From: Candidatus Heimdallarchaeota archaeon
Lineage (GTDB): Archaea > Asgardarchaeota > Heimdallarchaeia > Heimdallarchaeales > Heimdallarchaeaceae
NCBI GenBank assembly: GCA_018238545.1
Contig: JABCTC010000036.1
Location: forward strand, 1-34,972
Direction of reading: 5' to 3'
DNA: 34,972 nucleotides
Shown here in pieces: positions 9,842 to 29,901 of the stretch. Under the pieces are notes generated by a model. That model ran no database searches. It was not told where the DNA came from and saw only the letters and a list, made by a program, of their open reading frames with translations. Position numbers and translations under genes: made by a program. How positions within the stretch are numbered: position 1 is the stretch's first letter; each line of letters starts with the position of its first letter.

Positions 9842-9918
9842 TGGCGAGCCAGAGGCGATTCGAACGCCCGACCAACTGCTCCGCAGGCAGCCATTCTATC
9901 CAACTGAACTACTGGCTC
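9842..9918 (-). tRNA. tRNA-Arg(GCG), CCA encoded
   Basis: GAGCCAG/CTGGCTC acceptor stem, anticodon arm GCTGC-CTGCGGA-GCAGT, TTCGAAT T-loop, GCCA 3' end. Confidence 0.95.
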
Positions 9919-11364: not shown

Positions 11365-11428
11365 AAACAGCTTTTTTTTCATTTATCGTAGACAGTTAAT
11401 TTTATTTGCTTTGTAAGTGATAGGTAAT

Positions 11429-11757
11429 TGAACGAGGCGAAAAGGCAACTTCGGCTTTAGCTGAGGAACCTCCTGACTCCACGAAATAGATGTAGATGTA
11501 AATCTACCATGCGAGAGTGTGGCTCTTGGAACAGAAACGACACGCCCTTTATTCAGAGACAATGATGCGATACCGAATATGGTAACACAAATCGGGATAA
11601 TTTGCTGAGGAGGATAAAGGATACGATGAAACGGCCAATCATCTTGGAGCAAACTTGAATAGGGTTCATCTGAACCGGGTAGAGTGCTTAGATGAATGTT
11701 GCCGGGAAGGTCCTTGACGGCTTCCTAACAAAATCAGGGGTATTTTCGCGACGTTCA
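11429..11757 (+). ncRNA. rnpB: RNase P RNA (archaeal)
   Basis: P1 TGAACG..GCGAAAA / TTTTCGC..CGTTCA; CR-I GAGGAACCTCCTGA pairs with CR-V AACAAAATCAGGGGTA (P4 with bulged U); ACAGAAA, GATGAAAC, GGAGCAA and TTAGATGAATG elements in the expected order. Confidence 0.92.
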
Positions 11758-11872
11758 TTTTATTTTAAACGAACAAATTATGCTATGGGTTTTGTACAGA
11801 AATTATTACCTACTCGGTAAGTTTATTAAATTAAGGAAGGAATCTTATAAAGAATAGAAAAGAAGTGTTTAC

Positions 11873-13624
11873 ATGTCAAATAGGATATTGTACAGTAGAA
11901 TGACAGTTGCTTGTGTTGGATTTATTTTCCTGGTAGCAATGTTTGTTTCCTCGTCGTCTATACAAATCCCATTGGCTCAAAAATCTCAAAGTGAATCAGA
12001 AGTTGCCAGTTTTATGGATCTTGAAAATTCCACTTTAATCTGTTATTTGAGTTCTGATAACATAACTAGGGGGGAAGATGATTTAGTAATATTCTTCCGA
12101 TTCACTTATGAAAACCTCAGTTACATACCTGATTCTAACATATATTATAATATATCAAATTCTTTAGACGAAAAAATCTATGAGAATAATTTAACGGTGA
12201 ATACATCTTTATTATTTAATGACACTGTTATATGGTCAACTTTTAACAGTCAAACAGCTGGAAATTTTACCGTTACATCTGTTGCTAATAGCACATCAAC
12301 TGGTTTAGAAATTTCTGTCAATTATTTTGAATTATCGGTGTTACCTTTCGGCAAAGTAAGAATGTCTTTTCCTTCTAATCCAGCTTTCCTAATAAGAAAT
12401 CAGAATAATGATGTTAAGTGTACTATTACTAACACCGGCGGAACAACAATAACAAATGTTACAGTTACAAGTGAGATTCACAAAACTGGCACATCGGGTT
12501 CAGTTACAAGGTCACATGCAATACCAGAATTGACTCTGGAAGAGGGCGTTCAGTACAATGGTTACATAAGTTTCTTTCCAGATACGTATCTATACCAAAA
12601 ACACTCATTTTCTATAACATATAGAACTATTGACAACCCTGATCAAGAAAGGACACATCTTAGTGACCCACTTGAAATTATTGTGATGCCAAATATAACA
12701 GTTAATATGTATGAAGTTCCCATTAATGCAACTGTAGGGGAAAAGTACAGGATTATTTATAGTATAACAAATTATGAGGGAGTAAATCTGAATGTACTTC
12801 CTTATGTAAGAGTTCAAAATTCCAGTTACATGTTTTTCGATGGTGTAGATCTTGAAGAATCAATAGAGGTTGGTCAAGGTTATCACTTCTATTCTTTAGA
12901 AGGAGAACCTCAAATTTCAGGGATTCAGTATCTGTTTTTCAGAATAGAATTAGAATGGGAAACTGTTTCAGAGACTAAATGGTACTCAAACCTTTTACCA
13001 CTTATTATAACATATATCACAATTTTTCCTGATGATTCAGCTTGGAACTTTTTTGATCCCATAGTAACATATGGTTTGATATTTGGAGCGATAGGAATCG
13101 GAATTTTATATTTCTCAAGAGATATGTTCAAAAATATTGCAAAACGGGTTAGAGGTTCGTCTGAACGTGCTTTTCCCGAAGTAACTTATCCATTAAACAA
13201 AGTTATTCTTGATGGGAGTAATATTGCGTGGGAAGAAAAAAATAATCTAGATAAACCAAAGATAAGCAACATTGAAAATATGATAAATAGACTAAGCAAA
13301 GTGAATTTCACCAAAATCATAACAGTTGCTGATGCAGCTCTAAGATATCAGATAGATAATCAGAGAAGATTAGACAAATTAGTTAAAGAGGGGGCAATGA
13401 AGATGCTACCAGCCAGGGTAGATGGTGATAAATTCATTTTACGTTTAGCTGAAGAGGAGAAAGCAATGATTGTGAGTAATGATATGTTTAAGGAATTCAG
13501 AGAAATGAAAACATGGATTGATCAAAGAAGGATTCCTTATACAATTCTAGATAGCGAGGTATATCTTCACCCAACAGCTGTACAACCGATTAAAGAGGAA
13601 GAAGAAGAGGAAATATCAGACTAA
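11873..13624 (+). CDS. Membrane protein: signal/anchor, extracellular Ig/CARDB-like region, TM helix, cytoplasmic Zc3h12a/Regnase-like NYN (PIN-fold) RNase
   Basis: N-terminal hydrophobic segment; sequon-rich beta region (TITNTGGTTITNVTV); TM PIVTYGLIFGAIGIGILYF followed by basic residues; VILDGSNIA, DGDKFIL, MIVSNDMFKEF motifs. Confidence 0.85.
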   Translation: MSNRILYSRMTVACVGFIFLVAMFVSSSSIQIPLAQKSQSESEVASFMDLENSTLICYLSSDNITRGEDDLVIFFRFTYENLSYIPDSNIYYNISNSLDEKIYENNLTVNTSLLFNDTVIWSTFNSQTAGNFTVTSVANSTSTGLEISVNYFELSVLPFGKVRMSFPSNPAFLIRNQNNDVKCTITNTGGTTITNVTVTSEIHKTGTSGSVTRSHAIPELTLEEGVQYNGYISFFPDTYLYQKHSFSITYRTIDNPDQERTHLSDPLEIIVMPNITVNMYEVPINATVGEKYRIIYSITNYEGVNLNVLPYVRVQNSSYMFFDGVDLEESIEVGQGYHFYSLEGEPQISGIQYLFFRIELEWETVSETKWYSNLLPLIITYITIFPDDSAWNFFDPIVTYGLIFGAIGIGILYFSRDMFKNIAKRVRGSSERAFPEVTYPLNKVILDGSNIAWEEKNNLDKPKISNIENMINRLSKVNFTKIITVADAALRYQIDNQRRLDKLVKEGAMKMLPARVDGDKFILRLAEEEKAMIVSNDMFKEFREMKTWIDQRRIPYTILDSEVYLHPTAVQPIKEEEEEEISD

Positions 13625-13749: not shown

Positions 13750-14454
13750 GTGAAGACAATGAATATGGACCACGGGTATATAGGTATTCCATACAGTAAC
13801 ATTCCTACATTAGATGATAGTCTACCATATGACTACTTCTATAGTAATGAGTATGATTATCTTACAATCCAAGAAGTCCAGTTGCTTCTGATTCTATCTG
13901 ACTCTCGGATATCTTATTCTTTTTCAGGTTTGAGAAAGAAAACATCCTTGCATCAACATAAATTGACAAAAGCAATAAGAAGGTTACAAGAGCGTAGTTT
14001 TCTTTCAAAAAATGAAAATGGTTCTTACGAATTAACGGATAATGGAAGCGTTTATACTAGAGAACTCTTGCAAGAACTGGTTAACAAAAAAGCTGTAAGT
14101 CCCACAAAAATGCCCAGTGTTTCCTTAGTAAAAAAACTACGAACCATACCTCCTCTAGAAAAAAGAAAAATAGCTACATTATTAGAAAAACGTTGGTTTA
14201 ATAATTATCGTTTCCTTTATAGAAGAGAAATAGGTGACTTTACAGAACTTTGCTGGGAAGATAATGAGAAAAATCAATGTCATGTATATATAAATCTTGA
14301 AGGCAAGATTCAAATTGAATGTTCATCACTTAAACAAAAATTGAATGAAACTCAATTTATTACAAAGTGGGTTAGTGAAGAGATTCAAAGTAATACTGAT
14401 GTTGAGGTACTGATAGATGAGGAGGAAGAACACACTAAGATTCCCTATAATTGA
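13750..14454 (+). CDS. Winged-helix-containing protein
   Basis: YSFSGLRKKTSLHQHKLTKAIRRLQERSFLSKNENGSYELTDNG wHTH; C-terminal domain not recognised. Confidence 0.7.
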   Translation: MKTMNMDHGYIGIPYSNIPTLDDSLPYDYFYSNEYDYLTIQEVQLLLILSDSRISYSFSGLRKKTSLHQHKLTKAIRRLQERSFLSKNENGSYELTDNGSVYTRELLQELVNKKAVSPTKMPSVSLVKKLRTIPPLEKRKIATLLEKRWFNNYRFLYRREIGDFTELCWEDNEKNQCHVYINLEGKIQIECSSLKQKLNETQFITKWVSEEIQSNTDVEVLIDEEEEHTKIPYN

Positions 14455-14515: not shown

Positions 14516-15184
14516 ATGATGAATGCACCAAATTTCAATGGGGTAAATGGAAATCCATTTATGGAACCCAAACATGGAACAACTACAATTGCTTTAAGAT
14601 TTAAAGATGGTGTAGTTGTAGCTGCCGATAAAAGAGCTTCTATGGGCACTTTTGTCGCGTCTAAAAAAGCAGAAAAAGTACACATACTAAATAGTTTTAC
14701 TGTTGCTACTATTGCCGGGCTAGTTTCTGATGCTCAATACTTAATTAATCTTACAAGAGCAAACATCAATTTGTATGAACTAGCCAGAGGTTATCCTCCA
14801 ACATCAAAAATGGCAGGAAATCTCTTAGCATCTATCATGTATGAACAGTATCGACAATACTTCCCATATTATGTAAACATGATTGTAGCTGGTCTAGACA
14901 AAGAAGGACCACATGTGTTTAACTTGGATATGGCCGGTGGTATAACCGATGAAGATTTTGCTTCGACTGGTTCAGGATCATTAGTTGCTATCGGTGTATT
15001 AGAATCTACATGGAAAGCAAATCTACCTGAAAAGGATGGAATCGCAATAGCTATCAAAGCTCTTGCTACTGCTATTAGTAGAGATACCGCCACTGGCGAT
15101 GGTATGGATGTTGCTGTTGTTAACAAGAAGGGGGTTAAAAAGATAAAACCCGAAGAAGTTAAAACTATTTTGGAGGCATTATAG
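14516..15184 (+). CDS. psmB: 20S proteasome beta subunit
   Basis: Propeptide then HG/TTT (catalytic Thr at 14579), AADKRAS, EKV, AGLVSDAQ, GSGS, RDTATGDG. Confidence 0.95.
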   Translation: MMNAPNFNGVNGNPFMEPKHGTTTIALRFKDGVVVAADKRASMGTFVASKKAEKVHILNSFTVATIAGLVSDAQYLINLTRANINLYELARGYPPTSKMAGNLLASIMYEQYRQYFPYYVNMIVAGLDKEGPHVFNLDMAGGITDEDFASTGSGSLVAIGVLESTWKANLPEKDGIAIAIKALATAISRDTATGDGMDVAVVNKKGVKKIKPEEVKTILEAL

Positions 15185-15841
15185 ATGTTAGGACCACAAT
15201 CCATGGGATATGACAGATCACCTCTAATGTATTCTCCTGAAGGTCGTATTATACAGACCGAATATGCAAGAGAATCAGTAAGAAGAGGTAGTATAGGAAT
15301 AGGCATTAAAAGTAAAAACGGTGTCGTACTTGCAGGTTTGCTTCGCGTTGTTGATTTGAATGAACCTGATCATAAGATACACAAAATAAGTGATAGTACT
15401 CAAGCAATATTCGCTGGAGTAGCAGCTGATGGTCGAATTCTTATAAGTCGAGCTAGACTTGAATCTGAGATATTCAAACTCACATATGTTGAATCAATTG
15501 ATGTCCGATCACTTGCTATAAAAATAGGTGACTACATACAAATGTTTACCCAACAAGGCGGTCTTCGTCCTTTTGGTGTAGGAATACTTTTTGGTGGACT
15601 CGACCAAACTGGTCCAAGTTTACAATTTGTTGATCCAGGTGGTGGAGTAGTTTCATGTAAAGCTAAAGCAATGGGTGAAGGTGATTCCGAAGCAATTGCT
15701 TTCCTTAAAGAAAAATACAATGAAGAGCTAACCACTGACGAAATGGTTGAGATTGCTAAAGAAGCAATCAAGAAAGCATCTAGAGATACAGAATTGTCCG
15801 AAGATAGTATTGTTTTAGAGATTATGCCAAGTAAGGCTTAA
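15185..15841 (+). CDS. psmA: 20S proteasome alpha subunit (short, divergent)
   Basis: GYDR...YSPEGRIIQTEYARESV, GVAADGR, TQQGGLRPFGVG, VDPGG; ATG directly follows the beta TAG. Confidence 0.92.
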   Translation: MLGPQSMGYDRSPLMYSPEGRIIQTEYARESVRRGSIGIGIKSKNGVVLAGLLRVVDLNEPDHKIHKISDSTQAIFAGVAADGRILISRARLESEIFKLTYVESIDVRSLAIKIGDYIQMFTQQGGLRPFGVGILFGGLDQTGPSLQFVDPGGGVVSCKAKAMGEGDSEAIAFLKEKYNEELTTDEMVEIAKEAIKKASRDTELSEDSIVLEIMPSKA

Positions 15842-17481: not shown

Positions 17482-20028
17482 TTAACCGAATATATATTTC
17501 ATTTCTTTTCGGTTTGATAATCGTAGAAGCAATCTATCAGCAAATGAAACATGACTTTTCACCATAATCTTGGGGATATCATTGAAAACATAAATATAAT
17601 CTATGTTTTTTCTTTCTTCTTCTAATTCCTTATCTTTTATTTTGCATAGAACTTTCTCTTCATCCACTCCAATTAGTTGGCATGCAATTCCAACCTCAAT
17701 TTCTGCTTTAGTATAAAGAATAACAGATTTCCCAATCAATGTTTGCAATGTTACTGTTTGCTTAGTTATTTTATCTTTAGAAAATCTGAGAAGAACAGGA
17801 GGTAGTTCAATTAGCAAATCTTTACCTTTATAAGATATTTCTTCTATCTTGCCAGCTTTATCAACTTCAAATATAAATGAAGATTCAGAAAATGTCTTCT
17901 CTAGCTCAAAAGATTTTATTGTAGCTCCTCTATCAACTCCATCCACATAGAAGAAAATTTCATTGTCAATGTAGCTTTTAATGTACGAGACTGGTTTTCC
18001 AGTATAGTCACTAGTATAGATTTCTTCTTCATTGATCAAAGATTTAAAAGTGAAAACTGGTTTATTGCTTTTTTCTGTGGTTTTGGAGGACACTAAAAGC
18101 CCAGTTCTCCCTTTTTTAGAAATATATGTTTCATTGATTTCAGCATCATGGATTGAGAAATCAGAGACTTGAATATTTATTATATCGCCATCTTTGGTTT
18201 TGATACTCAACGAGAGAGGTCTGCAAATTAATTCGTTTATAACAACACTTTCAGCGTTTCCAATAATCAATATATCTTCTATGTGATCATATGCAATAAT
18301 ATCTCGTCCTACTATTCTGGAAACTAGTTCGTGCATTCTAGTTATTTCAAGAAATGTTTTCACGCCATCTTTTCCATAATATTCAATATATCTCGAAGAT
18401 ATTAAATTAGTGAAATCGTCTCTTTTTCTTGCAAATTTCTTTATTGTTTTACCCCTAATAAAATTTGGTAAAATAAGCCAATAAGGAAGTAAAGCACCTT
18501 TGATAGGAGATAGTTCATCATCAACCATAGCTTGTATTCTATAAGCTGATCTTGGATGAGACATGAAAATGTTTGCTATCATATCCCACCTACCCGGACG
18601 ATACACATGTCGATACAATCGGATAGCAGCTTCACCTAGGAATCTTTGTTTTTCCTCTTCTGTGAATTCCTTTCCTGTTAGTAACTGGACATTTACACCA
18701 AAATCACCAGCTACTCCTTGATAGAACCCCTCAAGTCTATACAATGCTTGAGCTAGTTCTCTACCGTATCCAGCTTTCTTTGTTTGGTTGTCTGCATCAC
18801 CTTCAAGTACTCTTACAAAGATGTAAAGGAAGGCTAAGATTCCATAGTTTATTAAGAAATATACACCAAAAGATACTTCCATATCTCGGTATGCTGAATA
18901 GTCTAAAGTTGTTGCAGGAAGCAAGAATGCTTTTTTAATGATCATCTCAGTAGCTGCAATACCTTGAAGAATAACTACGTGTAATCGCTTATTGTGAGCT
19001 AGTTCGTGTGCCACTATCCCTCTTATATCATCATCATTAAATTCCACTAAGTCTCTACAAACTATTGTTATCCTTTGATCAAACCAAGGGCCAAAAGCCA
19101 TAGCATTAAGAATGGGAGCTTCAACAAAGCCTACTTTTAATTTCTTTTTGATGCCCATTTTTACTCTTACTTCTTCTACCAAAGATAATATTCTTTCATC
19201 CTCAATTGGTTTTATCCCTAGAAGTTTTGTTAGAAGTGGTCCAGAAATAAAATACATACCAAGAGCTGCAAAAATCAACAACTCATATGGACCTAGGGAT
19301 AAGAAAACGATTCTCTCTGCATAACTGATGCTTTCAGGTCCCAGATAAAACCAAGAAAGGTTTGAAACCGTTTCTGTAGGAATCACTTCAATTTTTATTA
19401 AAATATCAATTACAATGTAAAGTGTCACATAAATTAATCCAAAGAGTACTAAATACAACACTTGAGGAGACATTAATCTACTAACTAAAACAAATTTCTT
19501 ACCAAAGAAAATCAAGGCCATTATTATGAATACGAAAATCATAATATTGTATGCCCAAGCTTTGAACAAATCGCTACCACTTCCAGTTAATAGCTCATGA
19601 ACAAAACCCCCAACAATATTATCTGTTGATTGAAAGATAGAAGAACTTTGAATATTATTAGATAACATGTCGTAAACAAAATCGCCTACCGTACCTACAA
19701 GAAAAACTAAGTAAGTTGTAAGCGAAATAATCATAAATTCTCTCCAGACTGGTGAACGCCACAATTGGAACGTTTGATATAAAGCAAGAACAAATAGACC
19801 CAACGCAATTGCCATTAACCAATCTTCAAACACTATTAACACTGCACCAAAAGTTAAAGAAATAAATGCAAGCATCAAATTTTCAGACGTAGTCCCGTGT
19901 CGAATCTTTGTGAATAATTCAGACATTAGAAAGAATAATCCTAACAAAGCAATAATTGCCCCAAGAAGGGAATTTGTACTTCTAGATAAATAATCCCAAA
20001 ATAAAACAAGAATTTCATTAAATGACAT
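17482..20028 (-). CDS. Large membrane M48 (HtpX/Ste24-like) zinc metalloprotease with extra N-terminal TMs and a C-terminal beta-rich extension
   Basis: LNAMAFG, AHELAH (HExxH), EGDAD, ALYRL, SHP..R motifs. ATG 20028 (MSFNEIL) preferred to avoid overlap. Confidence 0.85.
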   Translation of the reverse strand: MSFNEILVLFWDYLSRSTNSLLGAIIALLGLFFLMSELFTKIRHGTTSENLMLAFISLTFGAVLIVFEDWLMAIALGLFVLALYQTFQLWRSPVWREFMIISLTTYLVFLVGTVGDFVYDMLSNNIQSSSIFQSTDNIVGGFVHELLTGSGSDLFKAWAYNIMIFVFIIMALIFFGKKFVLVSRLMSPQVLYLVLFGLIYVTLYIVIDILIKIEVIPTETVSNLSWFYLGPESISYAERIVFLSLGPYELLIFAALGMYFISGPLLTKLLGIKPIEDERILSLVEEVRVKMGIKKKLKVGFVEAPILNAMAFGPWFDQRITIVCRDLVEFNDDDIRGIVAHELAHNKRLHVVILQGIAATEMIIKKAFLLPATTLDYSAYRDMEVSFGVYFLINYGILAFLYIFVRVLEGDADNQTKKAGYGRELAQALYRLEGFYQGVAGDFGVNVQLLTGKEFTEEEKQRFLGEAAIRLYRHVYRPGRWDMIANIFMSHPRSAYRIQAMVDDELSPIKGALLPYWLILPNFIRGKTIKKFARKRDDFTNLISSRYIEYYGKDGVKTFLEITRMHELVSRIVGRDIIAYDHIEDILIIGNAESVVINELICRPLSLSIKTKDGDIINIQVSDFSIHDAEINETYISKKGRTGLLVSSKTTEKSNKPVFTFKSLINEEEIYTSDYTGKPVSYIKSYIDNEIFFYVDGVDRGATIKSFELEKTFSESSFIFEVDKAGKIEEISYKGKDLLIELPPVLLRFSKDKITKQTVTLQTLIGKSVILYTKAEIEVGIACQLIGVDEEKVLCKIKDKELEEERKNIDYIYVFNDIPKIMVKSHVSFADRLLLRLSNRKEMKYIFG

Positions 20029-20143
20029 ACTATCATTGGCTTTGAAATATAGAACAATTAAAAAGTTTTGTTTTTGGAAAAATAACCTACTTGTAATGTA
20101 TTTCATTGGAAAGTTTATTATCTTTGTTAGAAAGCATATAGTA

Positions 20144-22604: not shown

Positions 22605-22681
22605 GGTCCCGTAGCTCAGCTGGATAGAGCGTTTGCCTCCTAAGCAAATGGTCGGGTGTTCGAATCACCTCGGGATCGCCA
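22605..22681 (+). tRNA. tRNA-Arg(CCT), CCA encoded
   Basis: GGTCCCG/CGGGATC acceptor stem, TTTGC-CTCCTAA-GCAAA anticodon arm, TTCGAAT, GCCA end. Confidence 0.95.
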
Positions 22682-29812: not shown

Positions 29813-29901
29813 TGGAGCCTCAGAGGGGACTTGAACCCCTGCCCTGTGACTTTCTCGATAGTTTACGAGATCACTGCTCTGGCGAACTGAGCTACCGAGG
29901 C
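29813..29901 (-). tRNA. tRNA-Thr(CGT) with 12-nt intron at 37/38 (intron 29852-29863), CCA encoded
   Basis: GCCTCGG/CTGAGGC acceptor stem, U discriminator; GTGAT-CTCGTA[AACTATCGAGAA]A-GTCAC; CTCG/CGAG central helix with 3-nt bulges (BHB). Confidence 0.92.

Follow-up and report, generated by a model that had tools for sequence, protein, structure and literature searches.

Gene and domain architecture

The window analyzed here is a 34,972-nt stretch of DNA from a Candidatus Heimdallarchaeota archaeon of the family Heimdallarchaeaceae (GenBank assembly GCA_018238545.1, contig JABCTC010000036.1, positions 1 to 34,972), with a G+C content of ~33% throughout. Positions 11873-13624 of its forward strand form one uninterrupted open reading frame (ORF) of 583 amino acids (aa) plus stop, as a preliminary description made from the sequence alone had claimed. 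The protein is a type I glycoprotein that crosses the membrane once, with three immunoglobulin (Ig)-like beta-sandwich domains outside and a Regnase-type NYN domain under the membrane: a known ribonuclease (RNase) domain in an undescribed, receptor-like architecture. Public annotation of its homologues goes no further than "NYN domain-containing protein" or "hypothetical protein." The gene has the following features, where TM stands for transmembrane and pLDDT for predicted local distance difference test score:

11873..13624, + strand: whole ORF (583 aa plus stop), with signal/anchor, ectodomain, TM helix and NYN RNase
11906..11962, + strand: N-terminal hydrophobic segment (residues 12-30); Kyte-Doolittle 2.23, with Arg4 and Arg9 ahead of it
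12020..12343, + strand: ectodomain D1 (residues 50-157), the membrane-distal beta-sandwich; pLDDT ~90, 9/13 sequons
12344..12691, + strand: ectodomain D2 (residues 158-273), a beta-sandwich assigned to the DUF7507/DUF11/CARDB class, with the motif GGTTITNVTVT
12692..13036, + strand: ectodomain D3 (residues 274-388), the membrane-proximal beta-sandwich, from the model; least conserved of the ectodomain domains
13058..13120, + strand: single TM helix (residues 396-416), from hydropathy, model and conservation
13121..13192, + strand: basic juxtamembrane linker (residues 417-440), flexible, with pLDDT <50 at 417-434
13193..13573, + strand: predicted Zc3h12a/Regnase-type NYN (PIN-like) endoribonuclease domain (residues 441-567), from PF11977 and fold matches
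13211..13222, + strand: D447-G-S-N450, aligned with D141 and N144 of Regnase-1 (human ZC3H12A)
13409..13429, + strand: P513-A-R515-V-D517-G-D519, aligned with P212, R214 and D226 of Regnase-1
13478..13495, + strand: N536-D537-M-F-K-E541, aligned with N243-D244...D248 of Regnase-1 (human ZC3H12A)
13574..13621, + strand: acidic C-terminal tail (residues 568-583), poorly conserved, with pLDDT <50 at 572-583

The sole Pfam domain of the protein was PF11977 (Zc3h12a-like NYN ribonuclease) at residues 441-564, with a score of 62.7 bits (curated cut-off 23; E 4.2e-17) over profile positions 2-139 of 154; an NCBIfam search returned nothing beyond the Pfam result. Pfam found no zinc finger or other domain after the NYN domain, where only 16 poorly conserved acidic residues remain. 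An AlphaFold2 model built on a 43-sequence alignment (mean pLDDT 81.7) contained three beta-sandwiches (residues about 50-157, 158-273 and 274-388), mostly at pLDDT ~90, followed by a TM helix at 396-426 and an alpha/beta domain at 441-567.

Membrane topology

Topology was assigned with the positive-inside rule and from Kyte-Doolittle hydropathy profiles of the window protein and 42 homologues. Almost all 43 sequences shared a near-identical pattern: an N-terminal hydrophobic segment with two to four Lys/Arg ahead of it, and a second segment near residue 400 that is flanked, family-wide, by zero or one Lys/Arg in the 15 residues ahead and mostly three to six after. In the window protein, five Lys/Arg lie in the first 15 residues past the TM helix. 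By the positive-inside rule the C-terminal domain is therefore cytoplasmic, regardless of whether the first segment is cleaved off or retained as an anchor. That first segment (residues 12-30) is probably a Sec signal peptide or an N-in signal anchor; it contains no Cys and hence no lipobox, and the model shows a helix at residues 2-25 followed by a disordered stretch at 26-49.

The distribution of N-x-S/T sequons points the same way. Residues 46-390 hold 13 of them, against 5.8 +/- 2.1 in composition-preserving shuffles (P = 0.0016), and 9 of the 13 are positionally conserved in at least 32 of the 43 homologues; the 167-residue cytoplasmic part has a single, unconserved sequon. Since both enrichment and conservation are confined to residues 46-390, the sequons support the topology independently. 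Hydropathy, charge, sequons and model thus agree on the layout of a type I receptor, with a signal sequence, an extracytoplasmic domain, one TM helix and a cytoplasmic effector. The preliminary description had anticipated much of this: its TM segment at 13058-13114 (residues 396-414) coincides with the hydropathy scan (394-415) and the AlphaFold2 helix (396-426), its "sequon-rich, beta-rich" extracellular sequence corresponds to the 13 sequons and three beta-sandwich domains at pLDDT ~90, and its cytoplasmic C-terminus accords with the Lys/Arg distribution in the 43 homologues and with sequon enrichment only ahead of the TM helix.

The TM helix is rich in small residues (G401, G405, G408 and G410) and its cytoplasmic boundary carries a near-invariant motif, Y413-F-S415-R416-D417, in which Y413, S415, R416 and D417 are at least 90% conserved. 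The linker that follows puts the RNase domain at most ~25 residues from the membrane.

Ectodomain

The folds of the ectodomain are generic and give no pointer to a ligand. D1 resembles single Ig-like/transglutaminase-type barrels (VIA Z 11.3-11.8, root-mean-square deviation [rmsd] 2.4-2.5 Å), and the whole ectodomain resembles tandem Ig-like/macroglobulin-type domains (complement C3/C5, alpha-2-macroglobulin and factor XIII barrels) at Z ~12, with a large multi-domain rmsd. A Foldseek search with the full-length model gave generic multi-Ig matches only, at low template-modeling scores (TM-scores). On sequence matches, D2 is assigned to the DUF7507/DUF11/CARDB class of prokaryotic surface repeats: phmmer matched ectodomain query residues ~138-250 (of 343 aa; protein residues ~183-295) to 14 stretches of a 1588-aa protein, all of which are Pfam DUF7507/DUF11/CARDB. 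Save for such D2-type repeats in giant surface proteins, no match to the ectodomain outside its own family emerged when 1.84 billion representatives were searched exhaustively with phmmer. No paralogue of the ectodomain was found in the window's own genome, and a search of the ESM Atlas gave no usable match.

Mean pairwise identity was 0.45 for D1, 0.34 for D3 and 0.34-0.46 across the three ectodomain domains, with 0.21 for the signal region and 0.30 for the C-terminal tail. The corresponding value for the NYN domain was 0.79, so the ectodomain is diverging far faster. Between families of the order, ectodomains had no detectable BLASTP similarity while NYN domains were still ~47% identical.

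The cytoplasmic NYN domain

Since the full-length model gave Foldseek only generic Ig matches, the cytoplasmic part was also folded alone (pLDDT 91.7). The best Foldseek matches of this model were ZC3H12C, ZC3H12B, ZC3H12A and KHNYN (E 1.6e-8, TM-score 0.65-0.72). In VIA it aligned with 7ndk, 8wzc, 5h9v and 3v33 at Z 16.0-17.0 (rmsd 2.6-3.0 Å over 133-135 residues); these high matches are ZC3H12C, KHNYN and Regnase-1, and PRORP came next at Z 13.3. A profile of Asgard NYN domains likewise matched ZC3H12C, ZC3H12B, ZC3H12A and KHNYN, at E 5e-15 to 1e-10. Judged by its sequence, the protein is a member of PF11977 but not a Regnase orthologue, because the CCCH zinc finger is absent after the NYN domain.

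Active-site equivalences were taken from a profile of 40 Asgard NYN domains aligned to human ZC3H12A, which paired D447 with D141, N450 with N144, D519 with D226, D537 with D244 and E541 with D248 of Regnase-1. All five residues are invariant in the 43 homologues, as is N536, and the DGSN motif (D447, N450) is invariant in the 40 Asgard NYN domains as well. Of six Regnase-1 positions considered (D141, N144, D225, D226, D244 and D248), five are thus kept and one is shifted: the position of D225 is taken by G518, beside which stands D517 (at least 90% conserved), two residues ahead of D519. An additional invariant Asp, D487, has no Regnase counterpart. The invariant R491 aligns, depending on the alignment, with either R183 or K184 of Regnase-1, both of which are RNA-cleavage residues (PMC4772114). 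The NYN domain therefore looks catalytically competent as far as its residues allow this to be judged. These results uphold the earlier assignment to a Regnase/N4BP1-type NYN domain with an intact acidic site (PF11977 at E 4.2e-17, Z 16-17, invariant residues), and the motifs on which that assignment relied are all present: VILDGSNIA with D447 (codon 13211-13213), DAAL with D487, VDGDKFIL with D517/D519 and IVSNDMFKE with D537/E541.

Regnase-1 requires head-to-tail dimerization of its PIN domain for activity in vitro, and the substitutions P212A and R214A each leave it monomeric and devoid of RNase activity (PMC4772114). These two residues align with P513, which is invariant, and R515, which is at least 90% conserved in the TM family; in most other Asgard NYN domains, Gly stands in place of this Arg. 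The alignment suggests that features coupling activity to self-association may have been retained.

Distribution and inheritance

A word-indexed protein search returned 68 full-length relatives (41-100% identity), all from Heimdallarchaeia and including one on a 3.08-Mb contig of Ca. Heimdallarchaeum aukensis; a region search added LC_2. A homologue search restricted to the NYN region retrieved the same family only, and is uninformative for bacteria or eukaryotes. Misassembly, which the preliminary description had named as a way in which the fusion might be false, is ruled out: the fusion is conserved in relatives, including closed genomes, and the same ORF occurs in single-contig genomes and on contigs of 0.7-3 Mb.

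Profile searches of 399 Asgard genomes (threshold E <= 0.001) found the full-length architecture solely in the window's order, Heimdallarchaeales, where 38 of 45 other genomes carry it (25/29, 1/1, 2/3 and 10/12 in the four families); outside the order, only the NYN domain was matched. Four Heimdallarchaeaceae genomes lack the gene, and precisely these four have no detectable RNase P RNA gene either; because that adjoining, essential gene is missing too, we regard these absences as assembly gaps. The window's own genome has just one member of the NYN family. In a maximum-likelihood tree of NYN domains, those of the TM proteins form one clade (96/96 support) with an internal order matching the families, a pattern consistent with a fusion that arose once, in the order's ancestor, and has since been inherited vertically.

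One genome of the order, G010, has a second copy (L028 1963-3663, + strand; G010:C55) with the same signal peptide-ectodomain-TM-NYN layout and an NYN domain inside the TM clade. The ectodomain of this copy has no pairwise similarity to that of the window protein.

PF11977 domains appear to be a widely used module in Asgard archaea, with NYN matches in 170 of the 399 genomes. Domain layouts were compared at 36 loci retrieved from the Asgard profile search. Outside the order, NYN proteins are mostly soluble fusions (TPR-NYN, STAND/AAA-NYN, and proteins of ~550 aa that join unknown domains to NYN) or small proteins of ~170 aa; such layouts occur at L005, L020, L024/L025, L029-L030 and others. 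Two kinds are membrane-associated: a helix-hairpin-helix (HhH)-NYN form with two hydrophobic segments after the NYN domain, and a PQQ propeller-TM-NYN form in genome G297. The latter protein (L021 2860-4869, - strand; G297:C1), from another Asgard family, has a signal peptide, a PQQ-type beta-propeller, a TM segment near residues 457-480 (YTLYAMIGASGVGIIAAFGYWLY then HKKK) and PF11977 at 511-651. Because its NYN domain falls outside the Heimdallarchaeales TM clade on the tree and its full-length form is confined to one small genus of three genomes, it represents an independent assembly of the outside-TM-RNase design. The same architecture was also considered for f20, the largest family sampled, and rejected: the many NYN proteins of 500-590 aa in that family are TPR or unknown-domain fusions without a TM segment.

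Genomic neighborhood and promoter

In Heimdallarchaeaceae the gene sits in a block with the order RNase P RNA, NYN gene, winged helix-turn-helix (wHTH) gene, psmB and psmA, with a metallo-beta-lactamase-like gene in two of three loci. The following features lie upstream of the ORF in the window (BRE, B recognition element):

11397-11408, + strand: promoter-like TAATTTTATTTG, upstream of the RNase P RNA gene
11432-11754, + strand: archaeal RNase P RNA gene (Rfam RF00373, 141.7 bits), 118 nt before the ATG
11755-11769, + strand: T-run terminator of the RNase P RNA, directly after it
11818..11830, + strand: conserved TATA/BRE-like element TAAGTTTATTAAA, 43 nt 5' of the ATG
11862-11867, + strand: Shine-Dalgarno-like GAAGTG, from the sequence

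Of 26 Heimdallarchaeaceae genomes with both an RNase P RNA gene and an NYN gene, 25, across five genera, carry the two in tandem, on the same strand and 70-190 nt apart; in the 26th, a contig break falls at the junction. The tandem is kept in Heimdallarchaeum despite different upstream genes and an inverted wHTH gene. The remaining three families of the order have their RNase P RNA gene elsewhere, and we treat the adjacency as synteny at family level rather than as a functional tie. There is no support for joint transcription of the two genes, given the T-run after the RNA and the conserved TATA-like element in the gap. This element, of the form TAARYTTATTA, was found at the same place in 16/16 Heimdallarchaeaceae intergenic regions compared, and from its sequence context the NYN gene most likely has its own promoter. 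The leader at 11852-11867 and its equivalents in L041-L055 contain GAATA/GAATAG repeats, in one to four copies per genome, followed by GAAGTG; they may form a translational or regulatory element conserved within the genus.

The wHTH gene had been proposed as a possible part of the same system, a suggestion that its distribution does not favor: it is adjacent to the NYN gene only in Heimdallarchaeaceae, and elsewhere it lies beyond psmBA or is unlinked. In a sister family (G010) it is found on the far side of psmA-psmB, and in f3 and f4 it is on other contigs. With adjacency in one family only and a variable strand, the wHTH gene is unproven as a functional partner. In the window, a 234-aa wHTH protein is encoded at 13750-14454 (+ strand) and an 874-aa membrane M48/M56 (BlaR1-like) peptidase at 17482-20106 (- strand), and both are near in three Heimdallarchaeaceae loci. 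By analogy, a BlaR1/BlaI-like pairing of protease and repressor would be a better account of the wHTH gene than a link to the NYN gene.

The psmB-psmA genes (14516-15841 in the window, + strand) adjoin the NYN gene in two families, downstream of it in f1 and divergently upstream in f2 (G010:C183, L040), and lie 5-12 kb from it in two f4 genomes. This linkage looks like decaying ancestral synteny rather than an operon. Neighborhoods in f4 hold unrelated housekeeping genes, including tRNA synthetases and phosphatases. Housekeeping genes surround the NYN gene in all families examined, with no defence-island context, and PADLOC-DB v2 gave no match for the NYN protein and only a generic winged-helix match for its wHTH neighbor.

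Comparison with known systems

The catalytic domain is homologous to those of the eukaryotic Zc3h12a-type NYN RNases (Regnase-1/MCPIP1, ZC3H12B-D, KHNYN and N4BP1), with which it shares 24-27% identity, the DGSN...D...SND..(D/E) site and the Pro-x-Arg of the Regnase-1 head-to-tail dimer. The eukaryotic enzymes are soluble, however, and carry CCCH zinc-finger, KH, UBA or CUBAN modules, whereas in the window protein the NYN domain is preceded by a signal peptide, a glycosylated ectodomain of 345 aa and a TM helix and is followed by no more than a short acidic tail. The preliminary description had held that known members of the family are usually soluble, in keeping with a comprehensive classification of PIN-like domains, where PF11977 is entered as of "unknown function in bacteria" with 23 sequences from archaea and a transmembrane form goes unmentioned (PMC5499597). 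Our literature search found no paper joining Asgard archaea with Regnase, Zc3h12a, NYN or PF11977, or describing a TM form.

In layout the protein matches IRE1: a sensor on the non-cytoplasmic side, one TM helix and an RNase on the cytoplasmic side. The two are non-homologous, since IRE1 has a kinase and a KEN RNase domain and an MHC-like luminal domain, and the window protein had no Pfam match to a kinase or KEN (Ribonuc_2-5A) domain at E < 0.1; the likeness is therefore one of logic, as had been proposed at the outset. Activation driven by oligomerization is established for IRE1 and is proposed here for the window protein. To our knowledge, transmembrane signaling ends directly in RNA cleavage in very few systems, of which IRE1 is the classic one, and in none of them is the nuclease NYN/PIN-like or the organism an archaeon.

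Other membrane-localized RNases offer looser parallels. Among bacterial enzymes, RNase Y has an N-terminal TM segment and RNase E an amphipathic helix. PIN.COG4956/YacL combines four TM helices with PIN and TRAM domains (PMC5499597). All three hold an RNase or a PIN-like nuclease on the cytoplasmic side of the membrane, but they belong to other nuclease families or PIN subgroups, have no substantial extracellular domain and differ in topology. PRORP falls in the same structural group of PIN-like nucleases (profile match E 8.5e-10, Z 13.3) but has PPR and zinc-binding domains and processes pre-tRNA, and the window's genome keeps an RNA-based RNase P, whose RNA gene directly precedes the NYN gene. 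The other Asgard NYN proteins likewise employ PF11977 as an effector module, placed internally or at the C-terminus, and the PQQ-propeller form shares the outside-TM-inside layout; their NYN domains nevertheless do not belong to the Heimdallarchaeales TM clade, the domains joined to them are unrelated, and the proteins are mostly soluble.

Possible functions

The account we favor, tentatively, is that of a receptor-type housekeeping "transmembrane RNase" whose cleavage of RNA at the membrane is controlled by clustering. The state of the ectodomain, whether set by a bound ligand, by contact with the cell envelope or by contact with another cell, would determine clustering in the membrane; clustering would let NYN domains pair head to tail, as those of Regnase-1 must do to be active; and the active enzyme would cut membrane-proximal RNAs such as mRNAs under translation at the translocon. 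The data show the architecture and topology, the family membership, the intact active site, the conserved dimer residues and the phyletic pattern, and from these we infer the RNase activity, its control by clustering, the substrate and the signal. Clustering-controlled cleavage seems the most economical proposal, because a conserved 345-aa ectodomain exceeds the needs of an anchor and because the enzyme family needs self-association. Outside-in signaling is plausible given the layout, the conserved Regnase-1 dimerization residues and the second, independent ectodomain-TM-NYN fusion. A housekeeping role is preferred to one in defence because the gene is single-copy and near-universal in the order, its tree matches the taxonomy, its neighbors are housekeeping genes and it has no PADLOC match.

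Several observations weigh against clustering-controlled cleavage. A constitutively active RNase that is merely localized to the membrane would yield the same sequence evidence, and an ectodomain without BLASTP similarity between families fits a lineage-specific partner or surface drift better than one conserved ligand. One of the five acidic residues of Regnase-1 (D225) is Gly here, though D517 adjoins it. The protein also has no accessory RNA-binding domain of the zinc-finger or KH type, which leaves specificity without an explanation.

A fuller version of the favored account is rather doubtful: a true receptor ribonuclease of Heimdallarchaeales, in which outside events (candidates are ligand binding, the state of the cell envelope or of secreted proteins, and cell-cell contact) would cluster the glycoprotein and let its Regnase-type RNase degrade membrane-proximal mRNAs, as an archaeal, non-homologous counterpart of IRE1 and its regulated IRE1-dependent decay (RIDD). 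If true, such a receptor would have been built from the RNase domain later used by eukaryotes in Regnase, KHNYN and N4BP1.

The main rival, possible but on balance somewhat unlikely, is a constitutive membrane-tethered enzyme of RNA decay or processing, in which the TM helix serves only for localization, comparable to that of RNase Y and RNase E in bacteria, and the ectodomain is a structural module of the surface or envelope. It would suit a core, single-copy, vertically inherited gene whose NYN domain is under very strong purifying selection (mean identity 0.79), as well as ectodomain domains of the generic DUF7507/DUF11/CARDB surface-repeat class. The Heimdallarchaeaceae block, with its genes for RNA and protein turnover (RNase P RNA, psmB, psmA and the metallo-beta-lactamase-like gene), also appears to favor it, but linkage to RNase P RNA and the proteasome fails across the order and thus makes no firm functional tie. 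A helix alone would suffice for tethering, whereas a three-domain, glycosylated ectodomain of 345 aa with conserved sequons and motifs implies an extracellular function, and retention of the Regnase-1 dimerization residues likewise counts against a simple tether. Alternatively, the membrane form may be a latent store from which regulated proteolysis at or near the membrane frees the NYN domain into the cytoplasm. The flexible, low-confidence linker of ~25 residues, the near-invariant YFSRD motif at the boundary and the large M48/M56 (BlaR1-like) peptidase gene within 4-6 kb in three Heimdallarchaeaceae loci could all be read this way; this support is purely circumstantial, the peptidase gene is non-adjacent, its linkage was looked at in those three loci and no signature of a cleavage site is known, so we consider such a precursor quite improbable.

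Defence, which the preliminary description had offered alongside signaling, fares poorly for a gene that is single-copy, vertically inherited and near-universal in one order, lies in housekeeping neighborhoods and has no PADLOC match. An antiviral or abortive-infection sensor, in which virion adsorption or envelope damage at the ectodomain would trigger non-specific RNA cleavage, has some appeal: eukaryotic Regnases, KHNYN and N4BP1 are described in part of the literature as restricting viruses, NYN domains in other Asgard lineages are fused to the TPR and STAND/AAA modules typical of conflict systems, and between families the ectodomain diverges much faster than the RNase domain. Yet defence genes are patchily distributed, whereas this gene is congruent with taxonomy and lies outside variable islands and mobile-element contexts, and its ectodomain is conserved within the family (mean identity 0.34-0.46, with conserved sequons) rather than hypervariable; a role of this kind is unlikely. 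Least probable of all is that the NYN domain is not an RNase but a module binding RNA or DNA, a DNA nuclease or an enzyme weakened at the D225 equivalent. PIN-like domains do include DNA nucleases (PMC5499597), and G518 replaces D225. Four of the five acidic residues and the Asn are invariant, however, D517 and the invariant D487 lie in the same pocket region, and the closest folds are all RNases.

Clustering-controlled cleavage at the membrane, if regulated from outside, would be a new and experimentally tractable signaling principle in the closest prokaryotic relatives of eukaryotes. In this core gene of an Asgard order, a glycosylated ectodomain is joined to a well-understood RNase domain of eukaryotic immune regulation. 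We know of no other described membrane-anchored Regnase-type RNase, so the protein is of interest even if it is a mere tethered decay enzyme. The cytoplasmic domain, which is small, should lend itself readily to assays.

Other features of the window

A scan of the locus for bacterial sigma-70 promoters and hairpin terminators was discarded as uninformative for an archaeon. Rfam identified three tRNA genes in the window:

9845-9918, - strand: tRNA gene
22605-22678, + strand: tRNA gene
29816-29901, - strand: tRNA gene

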